From positions 26,132 through 90,131 of IMG/VR virus record IMGVR_UViG_3300015050_000678: a DNA stretch of 64,000 bases; one strand, given 5' to 3'. Position 1 is the first letter of the stretch; every line of letters starts with the position of its first letter. The notes under the pieces are model-generated. The model worked only from the letters and a program-made list of their open reading frames with translations, was not told the origin of the DNA and ran no database searches. Below, in pieces: positions 1 through 25,073 of the stretch. Origin of the DNA: a virus. A program made the translations under genes and the position numbers.

Positions 1-279
1 ATTGATGGTAATAAATTAAATTACTCATTAGATAATTTAGAATGGTGTACTCATTCTCAAAACACAACACATTCTTATAAAATAGGATTACAAAAAACAA
101 GTAATAAAAGAATTTTAAAAATTAGTAAAAAAGTACTAAATATTAAAACTTTAGAAATTTATAATTCTGCAAAAGAAGCTGCATTTAAAAATAATTTAAA
201 TTATAATACTTTGATGTGTAGATTAAACGGTAGTATTACAAATAATACAAATTTAAAATATTTAGAAAATGAAAACTAA
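1..279 (+). CDS. HNH homing endonuclease, 3' part (5' end outside window)
   Basis: Frame 1 is open from base 1 and reads IDGNKLNYSLDNLEWCTHSQN (HNH motif) then a NUMOD1-like IYNSAKEAA..LNYNTL tail. Stop TAA at 277-279 overlaps the PolB start. Not in the supplied ORF track. Confidence 0.8.
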   Translation: MDGNKLNYSLDNLEWCTHSQNTTHSYKIGLQKTSNKRILKISKKVLNIKTLEIYNSAKEAAFKNNLNYNTLMCRLNGSITNNTNLKYLENEN

Positions 280-2104
280 GTGGCAAAAAGTAATATTTGA
301 TGTTGAAGTTTATCCAAACTGTTTTCTCTGTGCTATACAAGATGTAGATACTAAAGAGAAAATAGTTTGGGAAATTTCTGATAGAACAAATGAATATGAT
401 AATATTGTTAATTTCTTTAAGAATTTTAATCAATATTTAATTTCATTTAATGGAATACATTATGATAATTGTATTATAATGTATATTATCCACAATAAAC
501 TAGATAATGTTGAAGATTATCTACAAAAACTAAAAGATTGGTCAGATTATATAATACATAATGACTTTTGGTGGAATGATAGAGAATTAAGTAAGTATAA
601 ATACCATAATAAATGGATAGACATCGACTTATTTCTATATTGGAGTAAAATGCTTAGATTAAGTAAAAAATTAAGTCTTAAGGGACTTGCTATTCAACTT
701 AATTATCCTGTAGTACAGGAATTACCATTTGATCCAGCAATGAGCTTAAATCATGCTCAAATTGATGAATTAAGACATTACAATAGTGTACATGATTTGG
801 GTATTACTCAATTATTATATGACAACATGCTTAATGAAGTTAAATTAAGACAATATATTAGTGAAACTTATAATTTAAAGTGTTTTAGTTGGGATGCACC
901 TAAAATGGCATCTGAGTTGTTATTACAAGAATATTGTAAATTAACAAACCAGGAACCCAAATATGTTAAATCACTTAAATTTGAACATAAAAATAAATTA
1001 GAATTACCAGAAATTAACTTTCAAATGGATTGTTTTAAAGATTTATATAATGAAATGTCTGATTCTTTAAATGAATTTAGTAAAGAAATTATAATAATTA
1101 ATAACAATACAAGACTAAAACTAACTTATGGTAAAGGTGGTTTACATAGTGTAAATAAAAATGAATCTTATTTTGAAGATTGTGATAATTGCATTGTTAC
1201 AAGTGATGTAGCTAGTTTATATCCAAATCTTATTATTAATTATAATCTTTTAAGACAACCTGAAGTATTAAAATTATATACTAATGTTAAATCTGATAGG
1301 ATTGAAGCTAAAAGAAATAAAGATAAATCTAAAGATGCTCTATTAAAGTTAATTCTTAATTCAACATCTGGTATGATTGATAATCAATATTCTTGGTTAT
1401 ATTATCCAGAAGGAGCAATGAAACTTAGATTAATGGGACAATTAATTCTTTCATTAACTATTGAAAGATTAGTATTAGCTGGTTATCAAGTAATTAGTGC
1501 AAATACTGATGGTATTGAAGTTATTGTACCACAAGATAAATTAATGGATTATCGAGATATTGTTAATCAAGTTGGTAATGAATTTAATTTAGAATTTGAA
1601 CATGAAACATATAAAAAGATTATTTATATGAATGTTAATAATTATTTAGCTCAAACTGAATCTAAACTTAAACAAAAAGGTTTATTTGTTGAGAAACCCG
1701 AACTTGGAAATAGTGTAGATTATCTTATTATACCTAAAGCATTAAAAGCTTATTATATTGATAATATACCTATTAAAAAGTTTGTTGAATCACATACTAA
1801 TATATTAGATTTTTGTTGTAGTCAAAAAGTAGATAAGTCTTATCATATTACTTGGACTAATCCTCAATTTGAAACTAGTAAACAACAAAGATTAAATAGA
1901 TTTTATGCTTCAACTAAAGGTGGTTATATATTTAAATGTAGAAATGGTAAACAAAATCATTTATTAAAAGAATCTGGAGTAATGATTTACAATAATCATA
2001 ATCCTAATGTATTTCCTACAGATATTAATTATAAATTTTATATTGCACAAATTAATAAGATTATAATAGAGATAAATAATAAAAATCAATTAAATTTATT
2101 TTAA
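269..2104 (+). CDS. polB: Family B DNA polymerase
   Basis: Exonuclease motifs FDVEVY and FNGIHYD; polymerase motifs SDVASLYPN, KLILNSTSG and ANTDG. Ends in QLNLF. Confidence 0.93.
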   Translation: MKTKWQKVIFDVEVYPNCFLCAIQDVDTKEKIVWEISDRTNEYDNIVNFFKNFNQYLISFNGIHYDNCIIMYIIHNKLDNVEDYLQKLKDWSDYIIHNDFWWNDRELSKYKYHNKWIDIDLFLYWSKMLRLSKKLSLKGLAIQLNYPVVQELPFDPAMSLNHAQIDELRHYNSVHDLGITQLLYDNMLNEVKLRQYISETYNLKCFSWDAPKMASELLLQEYCKLTNQEPKYVKSLKFEHKNKLELPEINFQMDCFKDLYNEMSDSLNEFSKEIIIINNNTRLKLTYGKGGLHSVNKNESYFEDCDNCIVTSDVASLYPNLIINYNLLRQPEVLKLYTNVKSDRIEAKRNKDKSKDALLKLILNSTSGMIDNQYSWLYYPEGAMKLRLMGQLILSLTIERLVLAGYQVISANTDGIEVIVPQDKLMDYRDIVNQVGNEFNLEFEHETYKKIIYMNVNNYLAQTESKLKQKGLFVEKPELGNSVDYLIIPKALKAYYIDNIPIKKFVESHTNILDFCCSQKVDKSYHITWTNPQFETSKQQRLNRFYASTKGGYIFKCRNGKQNHLLKESGVMIYNNHNPNVFPTDINYKFYIAQINKIIIEINNKNQLNLF

Positions 2105-2105
2105 A

Positions 2106-2402
2106 ATGGAAAGATATGTAAAAAACATTAAAAAATGGTTTAATGAAAATTCTGAACTAGGTAAAATTTATGATACAAGTAAACCATTTCCTACACATTT
2201 AGATTATTGTAAAGATGAAACTTGGGAAAATGTGTTATTAGATGATAGATATCATTTAAATACATCAGGTTGGAAAACATGGTTTATACCTGCTACTGAA
2301 GAAGAGTATAATATACAAGAGAGTATAGATGTAATTAAACCGATTATTAATGAAGATTTATCATATTTAATTCCAATTTTAAAAAACCACAATATAATAT
2401 GA
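2106..2402 (+). CDS. Small modular protein with shared C-terminal tag (member 1)
   Basis: WFIPATEEEY motif; ends PIINEDLSYLIPILKNHNII. Confidence 0.8.
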   Translation: MERYVKNIKKWFNENSELGKIYDTSKPFPTHLDYCKDETWENVLLDDRYHLNTSGWKTWFIPATEEEYNIQESIDVIKPIINEDLSYLIPILKNHNII

Positions 2403-2716
2403 AACAAGAAGATTTAATAGTTGGTGCTTGGTATAGACAAACAGATAAAAATAATGTTTTTGGTAAATTAGAAACTTTAAAAGGTTTAACTAATAATTAT
2501 TTTCCGTCTAAAGAATATATTGTAGGTACTAACTATGATAATACAGGTAATTTTTTTGCGTGGAATATAGATAATTTAATACAAGTAAATTTAGAAGAAA
2601 TTCAAGAGTATTTACCAGATAATCATCCTGATAAAATGTTAACTTTTAAACAATTTGATAACTTAGAACCATTATTAAAAATATTAAATGAAATAAAATT
2701 AGATAAAAATGTTTAA
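2399..2716 (+). CDS. Small modular protein with tag variant (member 2)
   Basis: LEEIQEYLPDNHPDK segment; ends DNLEPLLKILNEIKLDKNV. Confidence 0.75.
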   Translation: MKQEDLIVGAWYRQTDKNNVFGKLETLKGLTNNYFPSKEYIVGTNYDNTGNFFAWNIDNLIQVNLEEIQEYLPDNHPDKMLTFKQFDNLEPLLKILNEIKLDKNV

Positions 2717-3284
2717 GAAAGATGAATATATAGTATGTTTAAATACCCCGGATTTGGATCCTTCTTTTCCAAAAAATTATATTTTTAAACAAAGAGAAGA
2801 TTTAGAACATCTTCGTTGTGAAAAAGATTTAACAAATTATCCTAATGGTTGGAGTTATATAACTTTTAATAATTTGGGAAAATATTCAGATTGGAGATAT
2901 GCAACTATTGAAGAAGCTCAACATTATGAACTTATCGGTAAACCTTATGATGTAACTACATTACCAGAGTTTATATTACCAGATAATTGGTATATTTTAG
3001 TTACTGAAGAAAATGCTACAGATGTTTTAACATGGAGATTTGAAGATAGTTATGAAATAAAAGATAATATTACTTTCTTAGATAAGATTGTAGGAATGGA
3101 TATTGATGGATGCAAAGGACATAATCCTAAAGATCAAATTAAATCAAAAGATGGTTATGACTTTGGTAATGAAATTACTTATAAACAATTTAAAAAATAT
3201 GTACTTAAAGTTGATGATAAACCAGTAGAAAAAGAAGACTTAAGTTATTTAATTCCATTTTTACATAATCTAAATATAACTTAA
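2709..3284 (+). CDS. Two-module protein with shared C-terminal tag (member 3)
   Basis: WRYATIEEA module plus LPDNW...EITYKQFKKYVL module; ends PVEKEDLSYLIPFLHNLNIT. Confidence 0.8.
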   Translation: MFKKDEYIVCLNTPDLDPSFPKNYIFKQREDLEHLRCEKDLTNYPNGWSYITFNNLGKYSDWRYATIEEAQHYELIGKPYDVTTLPEFILPDNWYILVTEENATDVLTWRFEDSYEIKDNITFLDKIVGMDIDGCKGHNPKDQIKSKDGYDFGNEITYKQFKKYVLKVDDKPVEKEDLSYLIPFLHNLNIT

Positions 3285-3285
3285 T

Positions 3286-3786
3286 ATGAAAGAAAAATAT
3301 AAATATGTTAAAATAATTAAAAAATCAGAAATTGAAACTGTTTGGTATAATGATAAAATTGGTAAAATAGTAAAAATTAATGCTAGAAAATTAGAAGATA
3401 GTTGTTTTAAAGTATTAGATTTTACTTGTAATAATCATTTAGGTGTATTTGTTTCACCTGATATGTTTGAATACTCAACAAAAGAAGATTATGATAATCA
3501 AAATCAATTTATATTACCTGAAAAGTGGTGTGTAAAAGATACTTTTGATGAAAAATCTAATGGGTTATACGAATATGCAAATATTAATGGAGCAAGACCA
3601 CCTTATGGAATTTCTAAAGTATCACATTATTATCATTTTCCATCTTTTAAAAACTGTACTACAGCAAGTAAAATAGAAGAAAATTATATTGAAATCACTT
3701 TAGATCAATTTTTAAAATATGTATTAAATAAAGAACCAATTAAAGAAGATATGACTGCGTTAATTAAATTACTTGAAGGATTATGA
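3286..3786 (+). CDS. Two-module protein with shared C-terminal tag (member 4)
   Basis: FEYSTKEDY plus LPEKW...EITLDQFLKYVL; ends PIKEDMTALIKLLEGL. Confidence 0.8.
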   Translation: MKEKYKYVKIIKKSEIETVWYNDKIGKIVKINARKLEDSCFKVLDFTCNNHLGVFVSPDMFEYSTKEDYDNQNQFILPEKWCVKDTFDEKSNGLYEYANINGARPPYGISKVSHYYHFPSFKNCTTASKIEENYIEITLDQFLKYVLNKEPIKEDMTALIKLLEGL

Positions 3787-4082
3787 CAATAGAAGAAGCA
3801 CAAGAAGAATGTAAAAGAAGATTTCCTATTGGTTGTACTTATAAAGATATTACTAATGGAAATATACATGTATTAAAAAATGATTATAATGTTTATAGTA
3901 TTATAAATCTTGATCTAGTACAAGCACATAATGGAGCAGGATTATTATATGATAATCGTAATGGTGAAAATATCTTTGCAAAATTAATTTCATATCCTGA
4001 AGGTTATGTAAGACCTGAAGAATCCGAACCAATAAAAGATGATCTTGAACCACTTGCTAAATTACTTAAAGAAATAACTTAA
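3783..4082 (+). CDS. Small protein with shared C-terminal tag (member 5)
   Basis: EECKRRFPIG N-terminus; ends PIKDDLEPLAKLLKEIT. Confidence 0.8.
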   Translation: MTIEEAQEECKRRFPIGCTYKDITNGNIHVLKNDYNVYSIINLDLVQAHNGAGLLYDNRNGENIFAKLISYPEGYVRPEESEPIKDDLEPLAKLLKEIT

Positions 4083-4083
4083 T

Positions 4084-4368
4084 ATGGATTTTAAAGATGA
4101 ATACGTAGAAATAATAATAGATGAAAGTTGTTTTAAACAAGGTGAAATATTAAAAAAGGAATATTATAATAATGGTACTAATGATTGGAGATTTGTATGG
4201 CCAGACGATTCCGGACAAGTATATAATAAATCATATAAAAATCATTTTATACCTTCAACATTGAAAAAATATAATAAATATTGGGGAAATCCAATTGAAC
4301 CAGAAACACCAATAAAAGATGATTTATCTGGATTAGTTAATTTATTTCAAAAACTTAATATAACATGA
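4084..4368 (+). CDS. Small protein with shared C-terminal tag (member 6)
   Basis: FIPSTLKKY motif; ends PIKDDLSGLVNLFQKLNIT. Confidence 0.8.
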   Translation: MDFKDEYVEIIIDESCFKQGEILKKEYYNNGTNDWRFVWPDDSGQVYNKSYKNHFIPSTLKKYNKYWGNPIEPETPIKDDLSGLVNLFQKLNIT

Positions 4369-4670
4369 AAAAAGAATTTGAATTACCTAAATATTGGTAT
4401 TTAAAAATAACACCTAATATATTAGATGAAGTTAACCATTTTAGAATAAATATTGCAAAATATTCTATGGGTAATATAGATGATAAACGATATCCTTTAT
4501 TATACGAAGATGGTTCTGGTGGATCTCCACCTACTAATAAGTACCAAGTTGAACTTAGTTTATCTGATTTTAGACAATATGTATTAAAAACTTCAGTTGT
4601 TGAACCAATTATAATTAATGAAGATTTAACTTATTTAGGCAAGTTTTTAAAAGATTTAAATATAACATAA
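4365..4670 (+). CDS. Small protein with shared C-terminal tag (member 7)
   Basis: LPKYW...ELSLSDFRQYVL; ends PIIINEDLTYLGKFLKDLNIT. Confidence 0.8.
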   Translation: MKKEFELPKYWYLKITPNILDEVNHFRINIAKYSMGNIDDKRYPLLYEDGSGGSPPTNKYQVELSLSDFRQYVLKTSVVEPIIINEDLTYLGKFLKDLNIT

Positions 4671-5737
4671 TGGAAGAAGTAATACACGTAGAAACACAAG
4701 AAGAATGGGATATTGTTACTGAACATTATAAGTTAGATTGGCATCGAATTTCTACATTTGATAATTATAAAAGTAAGACTTGTATAAAAGCACCAAATAA
4801 TCAATATGGAAGACTTGATTATTATTTAAGTGAGGGTTTAAAAGTAATTGAATTTAAAGAGTGGTATAAATTAATAAATAAAAATGTAAATATGAAAGAA
4901 AAAGGAATGGAAGAATTAATGTTAGATGTTTTGAATAAAACCTATGACAATCTATTATTAAGAAGAAAAACAGTTCCACTGTTTATGTCAAATCCTGGTA
5001 TGGGTAAGTCTACACTTATCAGAGAATTTGCTGAAAAAAAAGGTGTTAAAATGGTGAAAATAACACTTAGTACTAGAATGCCTAATGAAGTTACTGGAAT
5101 GGTAATGCCTGATTTAGCAAATAATGCAGCAGCATTGTTAGATAGTCATCAATTGACTAATTTAAAAGATGGTGATATTTTATTCTTTGATGAAGTATTT
5201 AATGGTGTTCTAAAACAAACATTAGATGCATTTCTAAATCTTTTAGAAGATAGAATGTTACTTAGTGGTAGAAAGTTAGCAGATGTAATGATTATTGCAG
5301 CAAGTAATCCACAAGGTTTAATTACTTTAACTCCTCAAATTAAAGAAAGATTTATTAGATATGATCTAAAGTTTGATGGGCCAGAATTTCAAGTATACTT
5401 GAAAGATAAATACGGTATGCCTGAATCTATTTCACATCATATAGTAACGTTAATTAATAAAGAAAAGTTTGAACAAGCAGCCTGGGATTATTTAACACCA
5501 AGAAGTGTAGAAAAAGCAATAAATCAAATTGGATGTGATTTACAAAGTCCATATAATGATTTACTTCTTCCATTTCTTAGTAGTGAGATAGAATCACCAA
5601 TTGATTTAAAAAGTCTTAGTATAAAACAAGGTGAAAAAGTAGAATATTTAAAATTTTTAAAATTAATAATAAAAAACAAAAATGATACAGAAAATCAAAA
5701 GCAAAAGAGTGGAGTTGCCTCCAATATTCTTAATTGA
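4670..5737 (+). CDS. MoxR/dynein-related AAA+ ATPase with extra ~74-aa N-terminal module
   Basis: Walker A SNPGMGKST, Walker B ILFFDE, sensor-1 AASN, arginine finger ERF. Possible internal start at ATG 4892. Confidence 0.85.
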   Translation: MEEVIHVETQEEWDIVTEHYKLDWHRISTFDNYKSKTCIKAPNNQYGRLDYYLSEGLKVIEFKEWYKLINKNVNMKEKGMEELMLDVLNKTYDNLLLRRKTVPLFMSNPGMGKSTLIREFAEKKGVKMVKITLSTRMPNEVTGMVMPDLANNAAALLDSHQLTNLKDGDILFFDEVFNGVLKQTLDAFLNLLEDRMLLSGRKLADVMIIAASNPQGLITLTPQIKERFIRYDLKFDGPEFQVYLKDKYGMPESISHHIVTLINKEKFEQAAWDYLTPRSVEKAINQIGCDLQSPYNDLLLPFLSSEIESPIDLKSLSIKQGEKVEYLKFLKLIIKNKNDTENQKQKSGVASNILN

Positions 5738-6617
5738 GAATGAGGAGGATTTTAAAGAGTTACCTAAAGGTATTCCTTATATCGTAGGTAAACAATCAGA
5801 ATTAAGTTTTATTACTATATTCTTGGAATTTCAAGTATTGTACAAATCTTGTATGAATACTCAAATTCCAATTAAATGGTTAGAATGCTTAAAGAAAATT
5901 GGATATAGTTCCAATAAAAGTTATGAATTACATTCAGGTGGATCTTATTGGGAATCTGGAACTGGTAATTATACATTAAGTATCGATAACTTTGTAGAAG
6001 ATCAATATTTTGTTGATTTTGATAGATTATCTGATTTAAAAGTTTTACCTAAATGGTTAGATGATATTAAAGAGTCTATTCAAACTAATATTATTGATGA
6101 GGTTACTTTTGATCCAACCGCTTTTAATAAGCAATTAGGTTTAAATGTGGGTTCTAGTGGCATCAAGCATAATATGAAAAATCTATTAATATTAGATATT
6201 TCATCATCTATGCCTAAATCAGTAGTATTAAGTATTACAAATTTAGCTAAATTAATGTCTAAGAAGTTTTACGCAGATGTAATTTTAACAGGTGTACGTT
6301 CATATCTAATAGATTATGAAGATGTACCTAACACTGACATTGTAGGTTCTGTAAAGGAATACGGTGGAGGTAATGAAGGTGAAATGTATATGGAAATTGT
6401 AGCACAACATAAAGAGTATAACACAGTTATATCTTTTGGTGATAATGATTGTCCAGATAATTGTCGCAATGGTAAAAACCTAGTAAACAACTTCCAAGTT
6501 GAGACATTGTATTCTTTACATACTGAAAGTTCTAGTAGTAATATTACAGGTTATGCTAAGGCTTTTAAACCAAAAACAACAAACGTAGTAAAAGATTGGT
6601 TAAACACAATCAAATAA
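5682..6617 (+). CDS. vWA-domain protein, probable partner of the AAA ATPase
   Basis: MIDAS motif LILDISSSM, then GGGNE and FGD; overlaps the AAA gene. Confidence 0.75.
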   Translation: MIQKIKSKRVELPPIFLIENEEDFKELPKGIPYIVGKQSELSFITIFLEFQVLYKSCMNTQIPIKWLECLKKIGYSSNKSYELHSGGSYWESGTGNYTLSIDNFVEDQYFVDFDRLSDLKVLPKWLDDIKESIQTNIIDEVTFDPTAFNKQLGLNVGSSGIKHNMKNLLILDISSSMPKSVVLSITNLAKLMSKKFYADVILTGVRSYLIDYEDVPNTDIVGSVKEYGGGNEGEMYMEIVAQHKEYNTVISFGDNDCPDNCRNGKNLVNNFQVETLYSLHTESSSSNITGYAKAFKPKTTNVVKDWLNTIK

Positions 6618-6659
6618 TAATAACATCAATAAATAATAACAATTAAAACAAAAAACAAA

Positions 6660-7148
6660 ATGGAATTTTTAACATCAAAAGGATTAGATTTAAACGCAGC
6701 AGGTTACTTAATTAGTAAAGACACTAAAAAACCAGTAAATCATGCAGAATTTGTAAAACAACAACAAGCAGCAGAATATACTGTTAAATTAGCAGAAGCT
6801 ATTAAAGATAAAAACTTTAAATCTGAAAAAGTAGATAACTTAGATGCTATTAAAGCTGAAGTTCGTGCTGCTATGAGTAATAATACAAGAATGTATGTTG
6901 CAGAACCAACTAAACCAACTAGTAAAGTACAAGATGAGTTAGTTAAATATGCATTAGATTTCTTAGATTTTGAAGATTCTAAATCTGAATCTGCAGAAAT
7001 CAACAAATTAATGAATGAATTTAACACAATTAATGATGTTGAATCAGTTGGAGATTATTTCTCTGAAGGTGTGGTAAAATTAAATGCAATTTATAGTATT
7101 AAAACTATTTTAGCTGCAATTAAAATTACTTACAGTAAATTAAAATAA
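6660..7148 (+). CDS. Hypothetical protein
   Basis: 162-aa ORF with an A-rich initiation region. Confidence 0.7.
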   Translation: MEFLTSKGLDLNAAGYLISKDTKKPVNHAEFVKQQQAAEYTVKLAEAIKDKNFKSEKVDNLDAIKAEVRAAMSNNTRMYVAEPTKPTSKVQDELVKYALDFLDFEDSKSESAEINKLMNEFNTINDVESVGDYFSEGVVKLNAIYSIKTILAAIKITYSKLK

Positions 7149-7157
7149 TCTAAATAT

Positions 7158-7218
7158 AATAGGTGTTCTCATGTGTTCGAGAGGAGAATTAAATGAACTA
7201 ATCAATGTCAGCCTATTT
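7158..7218 (+). other. Candidate structured intergenic element
   Basis: AATAGG/CCTATT outer stem enclosing a TTCTC/GAGAA hairpin; loop GTTC is complementary to downstream GAAC. Confidence 0.35.
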
Positions 7219-7236
7219 ATTTTTAAAACAAATTAA

Positions 7237-7455
7237 ATGAAAATATTAAAATTAATTATTGTAGTTTTATTTTTTACAAGTTGTAATGTTGGTTCAACAA
7301 AAATGTTATCAATATATCAAAAAGCTTACCCAAAAGGTACAGTTTATGTAACTTACACAAAAGATGTAATAGTTATAGATTCACTAAACAATGTTTGGTT
7401 TATTTTACCATTTAAATCAAATGGTAGTATTTCAAGTATAGTTAAAATAAAATAA
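7237..7455 (+). CDS. Small lipoprotein
   Basis: Signal peptide with a Bacteroidota-type lipobox (FFTSC). Confidence 0.65.
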   Translation: MKILKLIIVVLFFTSCNVGSTKMLSIYQKAYPKGTVYVTYTKDVIVIDSLNNVWFILPFKSNGSISSIVKIK

Positions 7456-7461
7456 AATAAA

Positions 7462-8199
7462 ATGAAAAAACAAGTTAACGATTTAATTGCAATATTAAAA
7501 AAACAAGATATACAAGGATGTATTACAGGTAGTTGTATGTTAGATTATTTTGAAGGTGCTGATGTAGATTTATTTTGTTATGATGAACAAAGTTTTACAG
7601 CATTATTATACTACATGAAGTACGATCCAATGTTTACAATTCTTGATCCATTAGAACTTCATAAATTTAATGATTACACTAAGAATGGAAAATCTTCATT
7701 AGATTCAATTGGATTAGTTACTATAAAGTTTAAGTATAATCTATGTATTGATGCCAATATAACTTTTAAAAAGTTTCATAAAACAATATTCGATGTTCTT
7801 AGTAATTTTGATTTAGATATAATTACTACAGGATATGATATTAAAACTGGTAAGATTATTTCATTAAGAGAATCTACTGATAAAGTAGGTACTTGGAATA
7901 AATGGAATAAAACATTTTATCAATCAGACTTTTGGTCTACAAAACGTCTATTAAGACAATTTGAACGTGTAGTTAAATACACGGAAAGAGGATATGATTT
8001 AACCTCAGTTACAGATAAATATATTTCAATAGTAGAAGAAATATTATTAACTGAAAACTTTTATAAATCTGAAAAGGGTACGAAATACTTTACTGATACC
8101 ATCGAACAATTTGAAGTTGTATTAAAAATACTTCAAGTTTGGAAAAGAGATTTAAAGATGACACCTGAACAAATATTAACATTAAGAACATTAATTTAA
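7462..8199 (+). CDS. Pol-beta superfamily nucleotidyltransferase
   Basis: ITGS-x9-DVDLF catalytic signature and a downstream FDLD motif. Confidence 0.7.
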   Translation: MKKQVNDLIAILKKQDIQGCITGSCMLDYFEGADVDLFCYDEQSFTALLYYMKYDPMFTILDPLELHKFNDYTKNGKSSLDSIGLVTIKFKYNLCIDANITFKKFHKTIFDVLSNFDLDIITTGYDIKTGKIISLRESTDKVGTWNKWNKTFYQSDFWSTKRLLRQFERVVKYTERGYDLTSVTDKYISIVEEILLTENFYKSEKGTKYFTDTIEQFEVVLKILQVWKRDLKMTPEQILTLRTLI

Positions 8200-8579
8200 T
8201 GAATTTAAATAAAACACAAATACAAGCATTAGCTACTAAATTTTATAATGAAATTAGTGCTAAAATAGATAAAGAAAATGCTATAAATTTTAAATCAAAA
8301 CTTGAAACATTTAGAGCAGATTACAATAAAGGTATTAAAATATTAGATAAAAATCCTTTTATTAAAAATATTGATATTAATATTGATAGTACACATATTG
8401 CTGAATTAAAAAGAAATATGACATTTGAACATTATAGTACTAATTATAATTTTAAATATGTAATTAAAGATAAAAAAGAAATTAAAAAATCAGATATTGA
8501 ATCAGATATAATTTTAGCTACAATTGATAGTCAATCAGTTGAAGATATTATGAAAGTATTAACTAACAAATATAAATAA
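8199..8579 (+). CDS. Hypothetical protein
   Basis: 126-aa ORF translationally coupled to the upstream gene. Confidence 0.65.
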   Translation: MNLNKTQIQALATKFYNEISAKIDKENAINFKSKLETFRADYNKGIKILDKNPFIKNIDINIDSTHIAELKRNMTFEHYSTNYNFKYVIKDKKEIKKSDIESDIILATIDSQSVEDIMKVLTNKYK

Positions 8580-8580
8580 T

Positions 8581-8760
8581 ATGTCAGAAATTGATAATTT
8601 ATTAGCAGAATTACGTAATATGAAAGCTAATACACCTAGTTTTAATCCTAAAGAAGTTTGGGATGGTATTGCAGAAAGAAAAGATTGGAGTTCATTAGGA
8701 TTCAAATCTAAAGAAGAATTTGAAAAATTCTTAAGTGATAACCCTTATGGTAATTTATAA
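8581..8760 (+). CDS. Hypothetical 59-aa protein
   Basis: MSEIDNLLAELRNMK...NPYGNL fills the gap exactly; below the ORF-track length cutoff. Confidence 0.65.
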   Translation: MSEIDNLLAELRNMKANTPSFNPKEVWDGIAERKDWSSLGFKSKEEFEKFLSDNPYGNL

Positions 8761-8761
8761 T

Positions 8762-9013
8762 ATGAGAAATTTTATAACAGAAAATAATCTATCTTTTGAA
8801 CAAGGTTCAAGAAATAGTACAGTGGTAACTTTAATTGGTTATGCTCAATTTAAAGGTTTAACATCTCAAGAATTAATTGATATTTTAAATCCAGAAATAA
8901 CTAATGATATTTTTATATTAGAAGAAATAAATCGTTTGTGGGATTACTGTAAAGTTAATAATTACAAAGCTTGGTGGAAATCTGAAGATTCAAAATTACA
9001 GTATACTTTCTAA
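8762..9013 (+). CDS. Stand-alone primase C-terminal (PriCT-1-like) domain
   Basis: EQGSRNSTVVTLIG motif. ATG 8762 preferred over GTG 8735 because it follows the upstream stop. Confidence 0.5.
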   Translation: MRNFITENNLSFEQGSRNSTVVTLIGYAQFKGLTSQELIDILNPEITNDIFILEEINRLWDYCKVNNYKAWWKSEDSKLQYTF

Positions 9014-9204
9014 TGAAACAATTATTATTAAATTGGTTACTTAAAGATATAACTAGATTTGAAGTTATTAATCATGATTGTACAAAATATGAAATTGGTA
9101 GATTAGTAGTTCATACTAAATCTAGATTTTTAAGTTATAATGGTAAATATGAAGTAATTGGTTCATTACAAGATGATAATAAAACTTTAAAAATATTTAT
9201 ATGA
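9013..9204 (+). CDS. Hypothetical protein
   Basis: ITRFEVINH...SLQDDNKTLKIFI; coupled ORF. Confidence 0.65.
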   Translation: MKQLLLNWLLKDITRFEVINHDCTKYEIGRLVVHTKSRFLSYNGKYEVIGSLQDDNKTLKIFI

Positions 9205-9641
9205 AATCATTTTTGCTCAAAGATAAGCGGCCCACAATCAAATGGGGTATGCTTAAAGATGAAACATACTTTGAAGGTGAAGTACCTGAAGGTTATGGAT
9301 TGGCGATTTCACCTCATGATCCATATATCATCTTAGATATTGATAGACATGGAGAAATAGATGGTTTTGATAATATACCAGAAGATATAACTAAAGAATT
9401 ATTGGGTCATTTTAGATATGCTACTAAAAATAATGGTAGCCATATTTGGTTTAGGTATTCTGGTACTAAAAAGTTACTTAATAAAACTTCAGGTAAAGGT
9501 CTGGATTTAAGAACTTCAAATGGTTATGTAAAATGGTACTTAGATAATGATATTAGAAGTTATATTCATTTAGTAATGGATACATCTCCTAAATTAAATA
9601 TATTCTTAGAATCATTGTTTCAAGGTGTAAAACAATTATAA
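9201..9641 (+). CDS. Bifunctional primase-polymerase (Prim-Pol) catalytic domain
   Basis: PTIKW, IILDID, TKNNGSHIWF and GLDLRTSNGYV motifs. Confidence 0.8.
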   Translation: MKSFLLKDKRPTIKWGMLKDETYFEGEVPEGYGLAISPHDPYIILDIDRHGEIDGFDNIPEDITKELLGHFRYATKNNGSHIWFRYSGTKKLLNKTSGKGLDLRTSNGYVKWYLDNDIRSYIHLVMDTSPKLNIFLESLFQGVKQL

Positions 9642-9642
9642 T

Positions 9643-9975
9643 ATGAAAAAATGGATATTACCTAAAGAATGGTATTTAGATAAAACAAGTGATTCAAATG
9701 AAATGAAAATTATTTTTGATTGGATGCAAACACAACTTGGTGGAGATCATTGGGAATTAAAGTATGCTTCTGAATATCATTTATTTTGGAAAAATAGAAA
9801 AAATTATCATCCAAATGGTACTAAAAACATGAATAGATTAAAAGATTGTACTTTAATTACATTTGAACAATTTCATAATCATGTAGTTTTAGGTGTAGAA
9901 CCATATAATGAACCAATTGAAAATGAAGATTTATCTTATTTAATACCTATTTTAAAAAAACACAACATAATATGA
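9643..9975 (+). CDS. Small protein with shared C-terminal tag (member 8)
   Basis: LPKEW...LITFEQFHNHVV; ends PIENEDLSYLIPILKKHNII. Confidence 0.8.
   Translation: MKKWILPKEWYLDKTSDSNEMKIIFDWMQTQLGGDHWELKYASEYHLFWKNRKNYHPNGTKNMNRLKDCTLITFEQFHNHVVLGVEPYNEPIENEDLSYLIPILKKHNII
9922..9975 (+). repeat. Dispersed repeat of 2349-2402 (tag-coding sequence)
   Basis: 49/54 nt identical; all 5 differences are at third codon positions and 4 are synonymous. Confidence 0.85.
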
Positions 9976-10232
9976 CAGAAGAACAAGTAAAAAGAATTTC
10001 AGAATTATATAAACTTAAATCTGAATTATTAGAAGATTTATCTAAACTTACAGGTAACGAATATTCATTTAAATTAGGTGTTCAAACTAATGAATTTTAT
10101 AGTGCATATGGACCAGCTATTCTTAAATGTTCTGATATTATATCTAAAGAAATAAAAGAAATTGTATTAATTAAAATACAATTAGAAATAGATAAAATTG
10201 ATTTAGAATTAAGTAATATTAAATGTGTATAA
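9972..10232 (+). CDS. Hypothetical protein
   Basis: 86-aa coupled ORF, predicted helical. Confidence 0.6.
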   Translation: MTEEQVKRISELYKLKSELLEDLSKLTGNEYSFKLGVQTNEFYSAYGPAILKCSDIISKEIKEIVLIKIQLEIDKIDLELSNIKCV

Positions 10233-10533
10233 TATGAAAGAAGAATTTCCAATAGGTACTTGGTATTTAAAAATAGATGATGAAAATAGAGATATAGTTA
10301 ATAATTGGAGAATTAATATTATTAAATACTCTGAAAGACCTTGTAAATATAAATATATATCTGAAAATGGAATAGGTGATGATATTGGTCCAAATGATGG
10401 GTTTAATACTGCAGAAATAACCACTTCTCAATTTAAAGAATATGTACTAAATATTAAAGAAGAACCTATACCAATTATCAATGAAGACCTAACATATTTA
10501 AAAGATATGTTAAATAAATTAAATATAAAATAA
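10225..10533 (+). CDS. Small protein with shared C-terminal tag (member 9), paralog of 4365..4670
   Basis: WYLKI...VNNWRINIIKYS...EITTSQFKEYVL; ends PIINEDLTYLKDMLNKLNIK. Confidence 0.8.
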   Translation: MYNMKEEFPIGTWYLKIDDENRDIVNNWRINIIKYSERPCKYKYISENGIGDDIGPNDGFNTAEITTSQFKEYVLNIKEEPIPIINEDLTYLKDMLNKLNIK

Positions 10534-10540
10534 ATAAAAC

Positions 10541-10753
10541 ATGGAAAATCAATTAAACAATGTAACTAAGGTTACTAAAACAGCTAAGACTGTATCTAAA
10601 GCAGAATTAACAGCAATGGTAGATTCTGGATCTAAGAAAGAACAAATTGCAGAATATTATGGATTAAATATTGCTCAAACAACTAAGTTGTTAAAATCAG
10701 CTAATTTAACTATTCGTAAATTTCATGCTCCAGCATTTAATTTGGTAGACTAA
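10541..10753 (+). CDS. Small HTH-like DNA-binding protein
   Basis: SKKEQIAEYYGLNIAQTTKLLK pattern. Confidence 0.5.
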   Translation: MENQLNNVTKVTKTAKTVSKAELTAMVDSGSKKEQIAEYYGLNIAQTTKLLKSANLTIRKFHAPAFNLVD

Positions 10754-10754
10754 A

Positions 10755-11831
10755 ATGTTACGTGAAGACATTCAAAAGTTAGCTTTAAATAAAACATTAA
10801 ATCAAAGAAGATGTAGTTTAGCTTTAAGTGGTGGTGCTGGAAAAACTTTAATAGGTTTACAACATATGTCACAGCAACCTAAAGGTTTTAAATTTTTAGT
10901 TGTAGCTCCAAAGAAATCTATATTTCAATCTTGGAAAGATGATGCTAAAAAGTTTAACTTTGAATATCTTCTTAAACAAATTACATTTTCTACTTATTTA
11001 TCTTTAACTAAACAATCATCTGAATATGATGTAATTTATGCAGATGAATGTCATAATTTAAAGTTATCTAAAAATGCTTGGTTAAGTAAATTTAAAGGTA
11101 AAATATTAGGATTAACCGGAACACCACCTAGAGATAATAAATCAGAAAGTGGTTTTATGGTAGATAAATACTGTCCTGTAATATATTCATATAATACAGA
11201 TGAAGCAGTAGATCATTCTATATTGAATGATTATAGAATAGTTGTACATTACGTACAATTAGATCAAATAAAGAATATTAAGGTTGTGAAACCTCAAGCA
11301 ACCTGGATGACTAGTGAAGTAGCAATATATAACTATTGGTCTGGAAGAGTGGAGAAATCCTTTGGTAAAATGAAACAAATAGCAGCTATACAACGCATGA
11401 AGGCTATGCAAGGTTTCTTAACTAAAGAATCTAAAGCTAAAAATCTTCTTAATGACATAGGACAATTTAGTAAATGTCTATGTTTTGCAAGTACTCAAGA
11501 GCAATCAGCTAGAATCTGTCCAACAACTTATCATTCAAAGAATAAGTTCTCAGAATCAAATTTAGAGTCTTTTAAAACAGGTAAATTATTAAAATTATGT
11601 GCTGTAGAACAACTATCAGAAGGAATTAACATACCTAATCTTAAATATGGAATAATTATGCACTCTTATGGCAATGAGAGAAAAGCTAGTCAAAAGATAT
11701 TTAGATTTCTTAGATTAAATCCTAATGAATGTAGTACTATTCATATACTATGTTATAAAGATACAATTGATGAACAATGGGTTAAATCAGCTTTAGAGGG
11801 ATTTAACCAAGATAAAATTATGTACTTATGA
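10755..11831 (+). CDS. Superfamily 2 helicase
   Basis: SGGAGKT, DECH, GLTGT and EGINIPNL motifs. Confidence 0.88.
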   Translation: MLREDIQKLALNKTLNQRRCSLALSGGAGKTLIGLQHMSQQPKGFKFLVVAPKKSIFQSWKDDAKKFNFEYLLKQITFSTYLSLTKQSSEYDVIYADECHNLKLSKNAWLSKFKGKILGLTGTPPRDNKSESGFMVDKYCPVIYSYNTDEAVDHSILNDYRIVVHYVQLDQIKNIKVVKPQATWMTSEVAIYNYWSGRVEKSFGKMKQIAAIQRMKAMQGFLTKESKAKNLLNDIGQFSKCLCFASTQEQSARICPTTYHSKNKFSESNLESFKTGKLLKLCAVEQLSEGINIPNLKYGIIMHSYGNERKASQKIFRFLRLNPNECSTIHILCYKDTIDEQWVKSALEGFNQDKIMYL

Positions 11832-12433
11832 TTGAAACAATTAGTGTAGACTTAAACAAATTATATGCTAATAAACTCAAACTAGAAGATTATTTCATTT
11901 TATATTGTTTAGTCAACCAAGAAGAAGAATTATTAGTCAAATACACTACTAATTGTAGAGGTATTGATACTAATGTTTTTCAAAGATTAAGAGATTCTGG
12001 ATTTATTGTCTTAACAAATGAAATTGATATAACATTTAGTACGATAAGTACAACATTAGAAGCTAAAAAGCTATTTAATGTAGGAGATAATCAACAATTT
12101 GATACTTTATTCAAAGAGTTATTATCTACTTATCCTAAAAGTGTTAAAAGAATTACTGGTGGTACAAGACCATTACATAATGATTTAGTTAGATGTAAGA
12201 AATTATATAAAACAACGATATTAGGACCATCTTCGTTTTTAAACATAGAATTACATAAAAAGATTTTATTATGCGTGCAAAAGTACTATAGGGATCATTT
12301 GAAAGACAATAAACAAGAATTTATGCAATTATTAGCAACATTTCTTTCCCAGAGAACCTGGGAACAATATTTAGATGAAGTTAGTAATATTCAAGAATTA
12401 CCTAAATCCAACGTAGATTATGACGCAATTTAA
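11828..12433 (+). CDS. Putative replication initiator/helicase loader
   Basis: wHTH-like N-terminus, F..L...YP and TFLSQRTWE motifs; overlaps the dnaB-like gene. Confidence 0.5.
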   Translation: MIETISVDLNKLYANKLKLEDYFILYCLVNQEEELLVKYTTNCRGIDTNVFQRLRDSGFIVLTNEIDITFSTISTTLEAKKLFNVGDNQQFDTLFKELLSTYPKSVKRITGGTRPLHNDLVRCKKLYKTTILGPSSFLNIELHKKILLCVQKYYRDHLKDNKQEFMQLLATFLSQRTWEQYLDEVSNIQELPKSNVDYDAI

Positions 12434-20504: not shown

Positions 20505-21300
20505 TTACACAATAGATGACTTTTTAAAACTTAAACCTATTATATATGAATATTGTTGTAATCTAACTCAAAAGAAGAATTCAACAACTTGGTATAGAGA
20601 TTTTGCTGCGGCAGATGATTTATACCAAGATTTATATATAAAAGCACATACTACTTATTTTAATAAACCTAAAGAACCAATTGTGTATGAAAGATTTGTT
20701 CAACGTATGAAAAATCTTACATTTTACACACACACTAATAATTTTTATAAAAAAGGAGCTAAACTTATAAATAAAACAAATCACTTTCAAGATACTTTTA
20801 AAAGTGAATTTTTATTTGAAAGTACACATTTTGAAGAACCTTTATATTTTGAAAATATCCAGGATCATCCAGATTATGCTTTTTATATGAAGAATCTTAA
20901 ATTTAATGAAAGATTGGCTATACAATATTTTTTAAATGGTTATACTAAAACAGAAGTAGCTAAAAAGTTTAATAAGACATATCCTTTTATACCAAACATT
21001 GTTAAAAAAATTGAAAGTAATATGTTAGCTGATAAATTTTCTAAATCTATTGTAAAACCTAGTGTAAAAAAAATAATTAGAGATAAAATAGAAATAGATG
21101 ATATTTCATTTTTAAAATCTAAAATATCTAATTTTGATATTATATTTAAAAACGATAAATTTGTTAAATTATATTCATTATATTTACAAGGTTTTGATCA
21201 TAAAATAATAGCTAAGAAATTAGATAAATCAGTATCTCAAGTTAATGTTGAGATTTATAGAATCAATAAGAAAATTAAACAAGATGATAGTACAAAATAA
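20485..21300 (+). CDS. Sigma-70/ECF-like protein with two region-4-type HTHs
   Basis: Region-2-like AADDLYQDLYIK; GYTKTEVAKKFN and GFDHKIIAKKLDKSVSQVNVEIYR HTHs. Confidence 0.6.
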   Translation: MKTILNNYTIDDFLKLKPIIYEYCCNLTQKKNSTTWYRDFAAADDLYQDLYIKAHTTYFNKPKEPIVYERFVQRMKNLTFYTHTNNFYKKGAKLINKTNHFQDTFKSEFLFESTHFEEPLYFENIQDHPDYAFYMKNLKFNERLAIQYFLNGYTKTEVAKKFNKTYPFIPNIVKKIESNMLADKFSKSIVKPSVKKIIRDKIEIDDISFLKSKISNFDIIFKNDKFVKLYSLYLQGFDHKIIAKKLDKSVSQVNVEIYRINKKIKQDDSTK

Positions 21301-21664
21301 ATATGAGGCCTCGAATGGTGTTCTTAAAGAGGTGTATCATTTTGAACAAGTTAAGGATGGGTGTAAACCTACTAAACAATCAGAAGGTAAATTATTCTAT
21401 GAAATAGATTGGGAATTTATAGAAGGGATGGCCACTAGGATGGCTTTAAATAAACAAAATGGTAAATATGATGTATTTGGATGGAGAGATAATGGTGTAG
21501 ATGTTAGTGAAATGAATCAAGCTTTAGTAAGGCACTTAATTGCTATATTAAAGGGAGAATTACAAGATGATGAACAACAATATTCACATTATTATGCTTT
21601 AGCATGTAACAGTATGCTAATAGTTAACTCTTTAAAAACTCAAAATAAACATGATACTAAATAA
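21245..21664 (+). CDS. dATP/dGTP diphosphohydrolase-like (DUF5664-type) protein
   Basis: GK..Y...KY....W...ALVRH...SH...LACN pattern; the start may be ATG 21284. Confidence 0.65.
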   Translation: MLRFIESIRKLNKMIVQNKYEASNGVLKEVYHFEQVKDGCKPTKQSEGKLFYEIDWEFIEGMATRMALNKQNGKYDVFGWRDNGVDVSEMNQALVRHLIAILKGELQDDEQQYSHYYALACNSMLIVNSLKTQNKHDTK

Positions 21665-22742
21665 AATACAACAACCAATTTATGATTGGTTATTATCAAA
21701 AAATAGTTACTTAAAATGTAGTCCCAAAGTAGTAGCTAAATATTATCGTAAAAAAGTAGACGTTAAACATATAGTTATTGCTTTAGAGCAAGCTAGAATT
21801 GAAAGTAAAGCTAGAGAATCTGCTAAAAGTTTAGTTGAAAAAGTTAATAATAAAATTACATTTAAAAATATTAATAAAGATAAAATTACTCCAATTGTAG
21901 GTGTACATCGTGGATCTAAAATAAGTAAAGTTAAAATTATTAATGATTTTAAAATATCTAAACCTGTAATTAGAGGGCATCGTTATTTAACTCCTGGGAT
22001 GTATATTGTAATAGGATGTGCACATGCACCATTTCATTTACAACCTGCATTTAAAGCTGTTCAACAATTATTAAGTGATAATAAATCCGACATTGTAGGT
22101 TTAGTATTAGATGGTGATTTTTTAGACATGAATTCACTCAGCTCTCATGATAAAGGTAGAAAACCTATTCCGGGTGTTACTTTAGATTGGGAGTATAAAG
22201 AATCTGAACAATTATTAGATAGTTTATTAGATCCTTTAGCTAGTAATATAGAAAAGATCTATATATTTGGAAATCATGAGGATAGGTATCATAGATATAT
22301 GTCGGATATTGATAATTCTAAATTGGGTAGTTCATTAGAAGGACCTGTTTCAGGATTAAATTTAGTAAGTAAGGGGTTTGATATTTATGAAAATTGGAAA
22401 GAAGATTTTGTAACATTAGGTCATCATTTAGATGTTTCTCATGGAGAATTTTTCAATGTACACAGTGCTAAAAAACACATAGATACCTATAGAAGATCTA
22501 TTTTATATTATCATACTCATAGAGTACAACAATATATTGAAGGTGCTGTAGGTGGATATAATGGTGGTTCTATGGCTGATTTTACAGCTCCTGTATTTGG
22601 ATATGCATCTAGAGCTATGAAAAATAGTTGGTTAAATGGATTTAATGCTGTTCACGTAGATGAACAAGGATTCTATCATATTCAGCAAATAGTTTGCTAT
22701 AACAATAGCTTTGTATTTGGTAATAAAATTTATAAATATTAA
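21651..22742 (+). CDS. Calcineurin-like metallophosphoesterase
   Basis: GCAH, GDFLD, GNHEDR, SHG and HTHR motifs. Confidence 0.85.
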   Translation: MILNKIQQPIYDWLLSKNSYLKCSPKVVAKYYRKKVDVKHIVIALEQARIESKARESAKSLVEKVNNKITFKNINKDKITPIVGVHRGSKISKVKIINDFKISKPVIRGHRYLTPGMYIVIGCAHAPFHLQPAFKAVQQLLSDNKSDIVGLVLDGDFLDMNSLSSHDKGRKPIPGVTLDWEYKESEQLLDSLLDPLASNIEKIYIFGNHEDRYHRYMSDIDNSKLGSSLEGPVSGLNLVSKGFDIYENWKEDFVTLGHHLDVSHGEFFNVHSAKKHIDTYRRSILYYHTHRVQQYIEGAVGGYNGGSMADFTAPVFGYASRAMKNSWLNGFNAVHVDEQGFYHIQQIVCYNNSFVFGNKIYKY

Positions 22743-23248: not shown

Positions 23249-23704
23249 ATGTTTAATTTATTAAAAAGAAAGAAAATGAATATTGAAATTAATGGTGTTA
23301 AAATAACTTTAACGAAAGAACAATTGCAAGAAATTGCAAATCAAACTCAACAAGATATATTTACAGCAACTACTTATCATGAAGTTTGTAAAAGATTAAA
23401 TGAAAAAGAATTAGAATTTAAAGATTTTGCTTTTTTAAAACACGAAGATGTTAAAAAAGCATTAAATTTTGCTAGAATTAAACAATTAGAAAGATATTTT
23501 AATCAAGGGTGGATTCCAAATTGGTATGATTCTTCAGAGTATAAATATTATTTATGGTATCAATTTAAAAATAGTGGTTGGGTTTTCGATAGTGTCGACG
23601 ACCGCGGCTACGGTTCTTATGCTGAGGTTGGTTTTTATAAAAATGAAAAAATTGCAAAACATATACAAGAATATTTCAATTCAGAGTACTTAAATGTACT
23701 TTAG
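23249..23704 (+). CDS. DGR target protein with C-terminal variable repeat
   Basis: ORF track starts at TTG 23207; ATG 23249 or 23276 is more likely. Reads W.PNW.D..EYKYY.W, then the VR-encoded SGWVFDSVDDRGYGSYAEVG. Confidence 0.8.
   Translation: MFNLLKRKKMNIEINGVKITLTKEQLQEIANQTQQDIFTATTYHEVCKRLNEKELEFKDFAFLKHEDVKKALNFARIKQLERYFNQGWIPNWYDSSEYKYYLWYQFKNSGWVFDSVDDRGYGSYAEVGFYKNEKIAKHIQEYFNSEYLNVL
23572..23633 (+). repeat. DGR variable repeat (VR)
   Basis: Ungapped 62-nt match to 23725-23786 with 14 mismatches, all opposite A in the other copy. Confidence 0.9.
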
Positions 23705-23724: not shown

Positions 23725-23786
23725 TAGTAGTTGAGTTTTCAATAGTGTCAACAACCACAACTACAATTCTAATACTGAAGTTAGTT
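23725..23786 (+). repeat. DGR template repeat (TR)
   Basis: Non-coding, AAC/AAT-rich copy (GTC AAC AAC CAC AAC TAC AAT TCT AAT) starting 20 nt after the target stop codon. Confidence 0.9.
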
Positions 23787-24601: not shown

Positions 24602-24847
24602 ATGAGTAATAAAATAATTTTAATATGTAATAATATTAAACCCTTTCCTATTAATGAAATAGGACCCAAATTACAATTAGATAAAGAATATACATTAGAA
24701 ACTATATTTTTGTGTGGTTGTGGTGAAAAACATTATGATGTTGGATTAGAAAATGACATTAATTTTGTAGAATGTTACAAATGTAGAGAAAAATTACCAT
24801 CAGATATTAGATGGTGTCACTCAAGTAGATTTACAACTAAAAATTAA
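24602..24847 (+). CDS. Small Cys-rich protein
   Basis: CGCGEKH...CYKC...WCHSSRF. Confidence 0.65.
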   Translation: MSNKIILICNNIKPFPINEIGPKLQLDKEYTLETIFLCGCGEKHYDVGLENDINFVECYKCREKLPSDIRWCHSSRFTTKN

Positions 24848-24851
24848 TATT

Positions 24852-25073
24852 TTGGCGGATATAACAAAATGTAATAACAAGAACTGTACATTAAGAAATG
24901 AATGTTACAGATTTACAGCACCAATAAATGAATTTAGACAATCTTATTTTGCTGAAACACCTAAACAAATAGAAGGTAATTGCAGTGAATTTTGGAATAA
25001 TAAAGGATATGCTGCTAATGATAAAACTTTAGAAACAATTAATAAACTAATTAAAAAGAAGTTAAATGGATAG
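24852..25073 (+). CDS. Small Cys-rich phage protein
   Basis: ADITKC....C.LR..CYRFTA; TTG start. Confidence 0.65.
   Translation: MADITKCNNKNCTLRNECYRFTAPINEFRQSYFAETPKQIEGNCSEFWNNKGYAANDKTLETINKLIKKKLNG

Follow-up and report, generated by a model that had tools for sequence, protein, structure and literature searches.

A conserved C-terminal helix on nine small early proteins of a freshwater crAss-like phage is a candidate docking peptide for an adjacent MoxR-like ATPase

We analysed a 64-kb window of phage DNA (bases 26132-90131 of the 90,131-bp genome in IMG/VR record IMGVR_UViG_3300015050_000678) in which nine small genes, T1 to T9, encode proteins that end in the same short peptide, which we call the tail. 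Seven of these genes lie in tandem and lead directly into the genes for a MoxR-like AAA+ ATPase and a vWA-like partner, and two are dispersed further downstream (Table 1). The two ends of the genome overlap by 123 bp, indicating that it is complete; its GC content is approximately 25% and its DNA polymerase is about 30% identical to the polymerases of crAss-like phages. The source is a freshwater crAss-like phage, and the tail genes sit in its early/replication block, with genes for the polymerase, a Prim-Pol, helicases and a DnaB-like protein around them. All nine open reading frames (ORFs) to which the original prediction had assigned a shared C-terminal tag are present on the plus strand where it placed them and carry the tails that it quoted. 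For T9, the ATG at 10234 is a likelier start codon than the GTG at 10225, as database protein P0004 is 99 aa long and the homologues start with MKEE. T1 to T7 and the ATPase gene are tightly spaced: neighbours overlap by 1-8 nt or stand 1 nt apart, and the stop codon of T7 overlaps the ATPase start codon by one base.

Table 1. Features of the tail-gene locus, module pairs found free and fused, and G-rich inserts in T9 orthologues. Plain positions refer to the window; L numbers denote related loci and P numbers proteins.
Feature	Position	Strand	Description
T1	2106..2402	+	98 aa; non-A body (B-like), P-I linker and tail; tail core 2352-2399
T2	2399..2716	+	105 aa; B2 module (G.WY...EIQEYLPDNHPDK) and subtype-ii tail 2657-2713; no P-[IV] linker
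T3	2709..3284	+	191 aa; B1 module, domain A, linker and tail 3234-3281
T4	3286..3786	+	166 aa; B-like module, domain A and subtype-ii tail 3745-3783
T5	3783..4082	+	99 aa; non-A body and subtype-ii tail 4038-4079
T6	4084..4368	+	94 aa; non-A body with weak likeness to T1; tail 4318-4365
T7	4365..4670	+	101 aa; domain A and tail 4620-4667
MoxR-like AAA+ ATPase	4670..5737	+	355 aa; residues 1-~73 are a type C module; core starts at a conserved helix before Walker A
vWA-like partner	5682..6617	+	311 aa; conserved D.S.S motif; highly conserved protein
T8	9643..9975	+	110 aa; domain A and tail 9925-9972; dispersed copy after Prim-Pol-like gene
T9	10234..10533	+	99 aa; domain A and tail 10483-10530; dispersed copy
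Module C, free with tail	P0153, L006:3534-3818		Fused counterpart: window ATPase N-terminus; 32% identity, E 1e-7
Module B1, free with tail	L021:9686-9997		Fused counterpart: P0231; 43% identity, E 1e-17
Module B2, free with tail	Window T2		Fused counterpart: N-terminal module of P0172; 33% identity, E 3e-9
Module A, free with tail	P0009		Fused counterpart: P0249; E 2e-8
G-rich insert	L003:10148-10193
G-rich insert	L007:10113-10158
G-rich insert	L008:9452-9497
G-rich insert	L009:1449-1494
G-rich insert	L010:487-532
G-rich insert	L011:7954-7999
G-rich insert	L012:807-852
G-rich insert	L013:1107-1152
G-rich insert	L016:10134-10179

We found that exactly nine ORFs of the genome carry the C-terminal tail, which has the form [ED][DEN]L.[YPAG]L...L. 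A regular expression written from the nine tails, and hence circular by construction, has just nine matches in the six frames of the window, each 3-9 residues before a stop codon. A hidden Markov model (HMM) of the nine tails scores T1 to T9 at E 5e-14 to 9e-7, and the runner-up reaches E 0.035 in the window (620 ORFs) and 0.05 in the whole genome (905 ORFs); the HMM thus separates the nine from all other ORFs, as expected from the claim that other genes in the window lack the tag. We also used an independent 34-position tail profile, A4, that adds 22 tails from other phages. This profile recovers eight of the nine at E ≤8e-9 and T2 at E 0.009 only. T2, T4 and T5 carry a second tail subtype (D.LEPL.K.L, subtype ii in Table 1) that recurs in other phages. 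The P-[IV] linker predicted to precede eight of the tails is correct, the exception being T2. Outside the window, two small ORFs at genome positions 24724-25068 (plus strand) and 11004-11426 (minus strand) have possible degenerate tails (..LLNIK and ..QQLNIK); they are known by eye or at E 0.47 only and are excluded from the count of nine.

To see where in a protein the tail can stand, we searched 1.84 billion representative proteins with A4 and obtained 51 matches at E ≤1e-3, all of them in proteins of 46-194 aa and all 51 ending 0-8 residues from the C-terminus. The same held in 88 related loci, where 94 of 94 tail matches (E ≤1e-3) end no more than 10 residues from the stop codon, so that the check for strictly C-terminal matches that the original prediction had proposed comes out the same way in both sets when it is run with the tail profile. 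Among the 51 database matches the tail is on no long protein and on none with a named domain, except P0151, in which an HNH-like N-terminus is joined to a T6-like end with the tail. Complete relatives of the phage have 8 and 6 tail genes in the same genome region, and a half-complete relative has 3. Searches of the literature did not find the tail motif strings, and a search on early small-protein paralogues of crAss-like phages returned nothing relevant.

The tail is kept as a peptide and not as DNA. The tail cores of T1 and T8 differ at 4 of 39 bases, all in third codon positions, one of which changes N to K; the earlier claim that these two copies differ only at third codon positions holds for the 13 core codons that they share. 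Across the 36 pairs of tails, 70 of 205 codon pairs that encode the same residue differ, compared to 68.7 expected from the codon usage of the genome. Silent sites are thus randomised, which indicates conservation of the peptide and speaks against recent gene conversion and against a signal at the DNA level. T1 and T8 have bodies of different types and share just their last 65 nt, at 86% identity, which is direct evidence that the linker and tail move between bodies. The same stretch, together with two neighbouring genes of L013 that share 59 nt of tail DNA at 95% and with L006 and L009, where the tail-plus-linker DNA is nearly identical and the bodies are about 54% identical, would also be expected if the conserved block were a recombination site for cassette shuffling and the peptide were incidental. 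We consider that explanation highly improbable because the silent-site differences match the codon-usage expectation. Recombination at the tail may well occur, but it leaves the conservation unexplained.

From its sequence, the tail would form an amphipathic helix with a hydrophobic face at i, i+3/4 and i+7. To view the tail in the context of whole proteins, we used AlphaFold2 models of T9 and T3. In the T9 model (84-row alignment, mean predicted local distance difference test score, pLDDT, of 83), domain A is a confident small alpha/beta domain, the linker dips below a pLDDT of 50 and a helix follows at residues 87-95. In the T3 model (11 rows, mean pLDDT 79), a beta-rich B1 module is followed by domain A, a low-confidence linker and a helix at residues 181-187. 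In both models the domains are mostly above a pLDDT of 80 and the linker blocks at 64-68, with the helix at the end; the tail is thus modelled as a helix of its own, set off by a flexible linker.

MinD and FtsA share this architecture, in that a short amphipathic helix at the C-terminus, reached through a flexible linker, targets them to the membrane, and by analogy the tail could be a membrane anchor. Membrane helices are as a rule cationic and conserve charge and hydrophobicity only; the tail in contrast opens with two acidic residues that hardly vary, and the same specific residues (L, Y/P, L) recur in different phages, which makes a membrane role very doubtful. The tail could instead be a degron that times the turnover of early proteins, in keeping with a C-terminal position common to many of them. 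Degrons of the ssrA type are recognised at the end and have conserved extreme C-terminal residues. Here the nine proteins vary in their last 3-6 residues (NII, NIT, EGL, EIT, KNV, NIK), with 3-9 residues between the conserved core and the stop, and we give a degron very little credence. More weight, while still improbable, goes to a helix for homo- or hetero-oligomerisation that would assemble the paralogues into mixed multimers; six to nine co-expressed carriers per genome, the hydrophobic face of the helix and the existence of two conserved tail subtypes are consistent with it. At about three turns, however, the helix is short for a stable bundle, and multimers among paralogues leave unexplained the alternation of fused and free modules around the ATPase that is described below.

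Two further candidates were rejected. Sliding-clamp-binding motifs have a consensus of an extended Q-L-x-L-F-like peptide (QL[SD]LF type), and none of the tails has the leading Q, only some end in LF, and the tail is modelled as helical. Homology of the tail to a segment of the ATPase (its first core helix, its LLPFL segment or its C-terminal helix) received an hhalign probability of 0.8%, and the tail-core HMM scored no more than 0.8 bits on 120 ATPases compared to 1.4 bits on reversed sequences. BLASTP does extend two pairwise alignments, P0153 with the window ATPase and T2 with P0172, through the tail into the ATPase core helix.

When the tails are set aside, the bodies are less different from each other than the original prediction had supposed: T1, T2, T5 and T6 do have non-A bodies, and the other five proteins have domain A in common. 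A profile of domain A without the tail detects it, at E 3e-11 to 8e-29, in T3, T4, T7, T8 and T9; T1, T2, T5 and T6 give no match. Domain A is present in 45 of the 51 database tail proteins. T7 and T9 are 41% identical over their whole bodies, T1 and T6 are 36.7% identical over 30 aa, and T3 and T4 are two-module proteins with an extra N-terminal module before domain A. The nine bodies are combinations from a small pool of shuffled modules (A, B1, B2 and others). Upstream of the window, at genome positions 21279-22688 on the plus strand, a 469-aa ORF without a tail chains several modules, one of which clearly corresponds to the T2 body.

We found no named relative for these modules. In Pfam and PHROGs nothing exceeded noise for any of the nine proteins, and in the ESM Atlas T9 hit no named family, with a best feature score of 0.78 that offers leads only. 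A Foldseek search of the PDB with the T9 model gave 0 matches at E ≤1e-3, and a wide VIA-align search with domain A from the same model gave a best Z of 2.6 (root-mean-square deviation 3.8, 55 aligned residues) and no trustworthy fold relative. For B1, taken from the T3 model, the best Z was 3.8 (root-mean-square deviation 3.1, 63 aligned residues) with assorted SH3-like barrels tied and none trustworthy; the T3 model had 0 matches at E ≤1e-3 in BFVD.

The ATPase encoded directly downstream of T7 matches Pfam AAA_5 at E 4e-11 and bpMoxR at 29 bits (cut-off 27), with its G.GKS motif approximately 110 residues in, and has no match among PDB sequences at E ≤1e-3. The gene for the vWA-like partner directly follows the AAA+ gene in 61 of 63 distinct loci; where it is missing, the locus ends soon after the AAA+ gene or the contig stops within the AAA+ ORF. 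This partner matched no profile from Pfam or the PDB, and its label, vWA-like, comes from the D.S.S motif and synteny. In L002, the ATPase match spans 1476 nt (8753-10228) for about 350 residues and the ORF covers only the C-terminal part (208 aa), which suggests an insertion or frameshift.

To compare what lies upstream of the ATPase core across relatives, we examined 120 ATPase homologues, of which 116 have a recognisable core start. Of the 116, 28 begin at the core helix, and 86 have an N-terminal module longer than 50 aa. Among the N-terminal extensions longer than 30 aa, 51 of 87 match the tail-stripped body of a tail-bearing small protein (BLASTP E ≤1e-3); the comparison set is a limited one of 181 tail-bearing small proteins, and the other 36 extensions have no match within it. 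Four module types (A, B1, B2 and C) are found both free with the tail and fused without the tail to the ATPase N-terminus (Table 1), an observation that is new here. The module on the window ATPase itself is of type C, and domain A was not detected there. A tail that is always C-terminal, that occurs on at least four module types, whose silent sites are randomised and that T1 and T8 share on otherwise unrelated bodies agrees with the claim of a portable, position-specific peptide under selection.

The positions of the genes follow the same pattern. In L021, a gene for B1 with a tail precedes, by approximately 240 nt, the gene for a short ATPase beginning at the core helix, and in P0231 B1 is joined to the ATPase core by a short linker in the same order. 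In phages with a 266-aa ATPase, a tail-bearing gene of 148-150 aa ends a few nt before the ATPase start, and in most close relatives a tail-bearing gene adjoins the ATPase gene. When we considered the 35 loci that have both, all tail genes are on the AAA+ strand in 33, and most of them stop a few nt from the ATPase ORF. Within the close clade, 22 of 26 distinct AAA+ ORFs have at least one tail match nearby, and L021, one of the four misses, has a tail match just below threshold. Together, the module comparison and the synteny indicate that modules have the tail when they are encoded as separate polypeptides beside the ATPase gene and lack it when they are part of the ATPase chain.

These data suggest a reading that we hold tentatively, at a little under even confidence: the tail would tether free modules to the AAA+/vWA-like machine, with binding inferred from gene fusion and synteny. 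The nine genes would then form a repertoire of small early proteins, each made of one or two modules from a common pool (domain A, the SH3-like B1, B2 and others) with a flexible Pro/acidic linker behind them and, at the end, a conserved amphipathic helix of some 13-16 residues. This helix would act as a docking peptide through which free modules attach in trans to the ATPase encoded directly downstream, or to its complex with the vWA-like partner. In relatives the same modules would reach the same place in cis, fused without a tail to the ATPase N-terminus, and the modules themselves would be exchangeable recognition or adaptor domains that choose the targets of the ATPase. That the tail replaces a covalent link is suggested by its presence on free modules and its absence from fused ones, and this alternation is the observation that the rival explanations account for least well.

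A different reading of the same fusions is that the tail docks the modules on one conserved host hub, such as a replication, transcription or proteolysis factor, and that the ATPase fusions reflect the same host target. The location of the genes among replication functions would suit a host hub, as would a tail far more conserved across phages than the bodies, which is expected for a slowly evolving partner, and the occurrence of the AAA+/vWA-like pair without tails in distant phages. A host hub leaves unexplained that modules lack the tail precisely when they are fused to the ATPase and that a tail gene abuts the ATPase gene, and we regard it as unlikely.

Several observations weigh against tethering to the ATPase machine. 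In a distant clade (L052-L088, with AAA+ proteins 38-46% identical), 35 distinct loci keep the AAA+/vWA-like pair and have 0 tail matches; either the machine works without this tail there, or the tail has diverged beyond the reach of the profile. Fusion and synteny would be equally expected of modules and an ATPase that simply share a target. The window ATPase already has a fused module, so that tethering in trans is not needed for one; T8 and T9 lie 5 kb from the ATPase; and profiles from Pfam and the PDB leave the vWA assignment unconfirmed. Of the partners that the original prediction had listed, the adjacent AAA+/vWA machine gains specific support, in that modules are fused to the ATPase in relatives and a tail gene abuts it; the machine appears not to require the tail, as more distant phages have the pair with no detectable tail. 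We also predicted a complex of the AAA+ core (residues 70-355), the vWA-like protein, Mg and the tail profile; a control in which the vWA-like chain was replaced scored as high as the complex, and we count this prediction neither for nor against binding.

We looked by eye for a replacement common tail in the distant-clade loci L058, L060 and L072 and found nothing like this tail. Small early proteins of L058 and L060 have other recurrent C-terminal endings (e.g. ..WF.KFKNK and ..LLEIYKK.KGL), a hint that small phage proteins may share C-terminal peptides more widely.

The arrangement proposed here resembles known adaptor systems. SspB has a C-terminal peptide that binds ClpX, and the cofactors of p97/VCP share short motifs. 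As judged from the models, the T proteins likewise may combine a body for recognition with a short docking peptide at the end of a flexible linker, and by analogy many different bodies would share one peptide and serve one AAA+ machine. In contrast to these systems, the phage ATPase belongs to the MoxR class instead of being a Clp or p97 unfoldase, the sequences are not similar and the binding is deduced. To our knowledge, an alternation of the same modules between a fused N-terminal and a free form is not a described feature of SspB or p97 systems, and we know of no MoxR system with six to nine small tail-bearing proteins or with variable N-terminal modules. Among the matches listed in a literature search, none combines crAss-like phages and MoxR.

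A parallel within the MoxR class may be NorQ-NorD. As reported for NorQ-NorD, a MoxR-like ATPase gene (here AAA_5, bpMoxR) is directly followed by the gene for a partner with a D.S.S motif (PMC9976466, PMC13036017). The C-terminus of NorD is reported to contact the NorQ ring (PMC13036017), which would offer a precedent, by analogy, for docking of a C-terminus on a MoxR ring. The phage partner differs from NorD in that it has no sequence match in Pfam or the PDB.

Orthologues of T9 on other contigs have near-identical flanks around a hypervariable loop just before the last helix of domain A. We found 46 different loops in 46 proteins, 11-21 aa long, with a median identity of 25% among loops of equal length as compared to 94.7% for the flank on the N-terminal side. 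Gly makes up 28.5% of the loop residues and Leu, Val, Trp and Arg are also frequent, with Lys, Asn and Thr each at no more than 0.5%. At the DNA level, they correspond to a G-rich insert of approximately 30-75 nt that is flanked on both sides by conserved AT-rich sequence; the genomes have a GC content of about 26%. The length of the loop breaks the frame in two loci, L015 and L019. T9 of the window, L006 and L018 have an ordinary A-rich loop. The T9 orthologue of L006 (10001-10291), a complete 90.8-kb relative, has an in-frame TGA in the loop region that could be a mutation, a sequencing error or stop-codon recoding.

Such loops share several features with the targets of diversity-generating retroelements (DGRs): a short hypervariable segment, near-identical flanks, few A-rich codons and a lineage that has a pair resembling a variable repeat and a template repeat (VR/TR). 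In contrast to DGR targets, the loops vary in length, two loci are out of frame and neither a template nor a reverse transcriptase was found. The reverse transcriptase family RVT_1 has no match in 6 records, 3 of which are ≥97% complete; in the complete genome of the window, it has none anywhere. No template copy of a loop was found in the related loci and the added parts of records G003 and G005, although the records with G-rich loops are incomplete and a template could lie further away, and no repeat of a loop was found within the loci. With no reverse transcriptase in these records, no adenine-specific template in the DNA searched and a loop of varying length, we rejected a classical DGR as the cause of the G-rich loops. 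The template scan did recover, as a positive control, the VR/TR-like pair of the window (23572-23633 and 23725-23786), whose 62-nt copies differ at 14 positions, each an adenine in the second copy, and match everywhere else. Because these differences are confined to adenines, an adenine-directed, G-biased process may exist in this lineage. The G-rich loop may mark a diversification process other than a classical retroelement.

Close relatives of the phage were detected in sequencing runs from 4 studies labelled as freshwater, aquatic or lake metagenomes; a small share of the sequence is similar in any of these runs (≤0.13 of words), and the relatives are present there as short contig patches. 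A search of runs turned up no RNA run that contains window sequence. Among GenBank phages, there was no DNA-level match to window positions 1-12000 and no tblastn match with T3. ORFs of the HNH/NUMOD-like homing-endonuclease type lie on either side of the polymerase gene (window 1-279; genome 20408-20935 and 25850-26407).

A bolder proposal joins the two parts of this work: a MoxR-type AAA+ machine with plug-in specificity, supplied by cis fusions or by a trans docking helix, together with a loop at the T9 locus that is diversified by a G-biased process independent of reverse transcriptase. These would provide adaptable binders that direct the ATPase against changing host targets, e.g. defence proteins; we think it a speculative and improbable combination as a whole.

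Although crAss-like phages are abundant, most of their early genes have no assigned function. Here, nine unannotated genes and hundreds of relatives resolve into a candidate three-part system that consists of a pool of modules, one docking peptide and a possible receptor, the adjacent MoxR-like ATPase complex. If this is true, it would give the MoxR class its first described adaptor repertoire and would offer a route to what the phage machine acts on, and the tail would be a simple sequence handle for finding such proteins in metagenomes.

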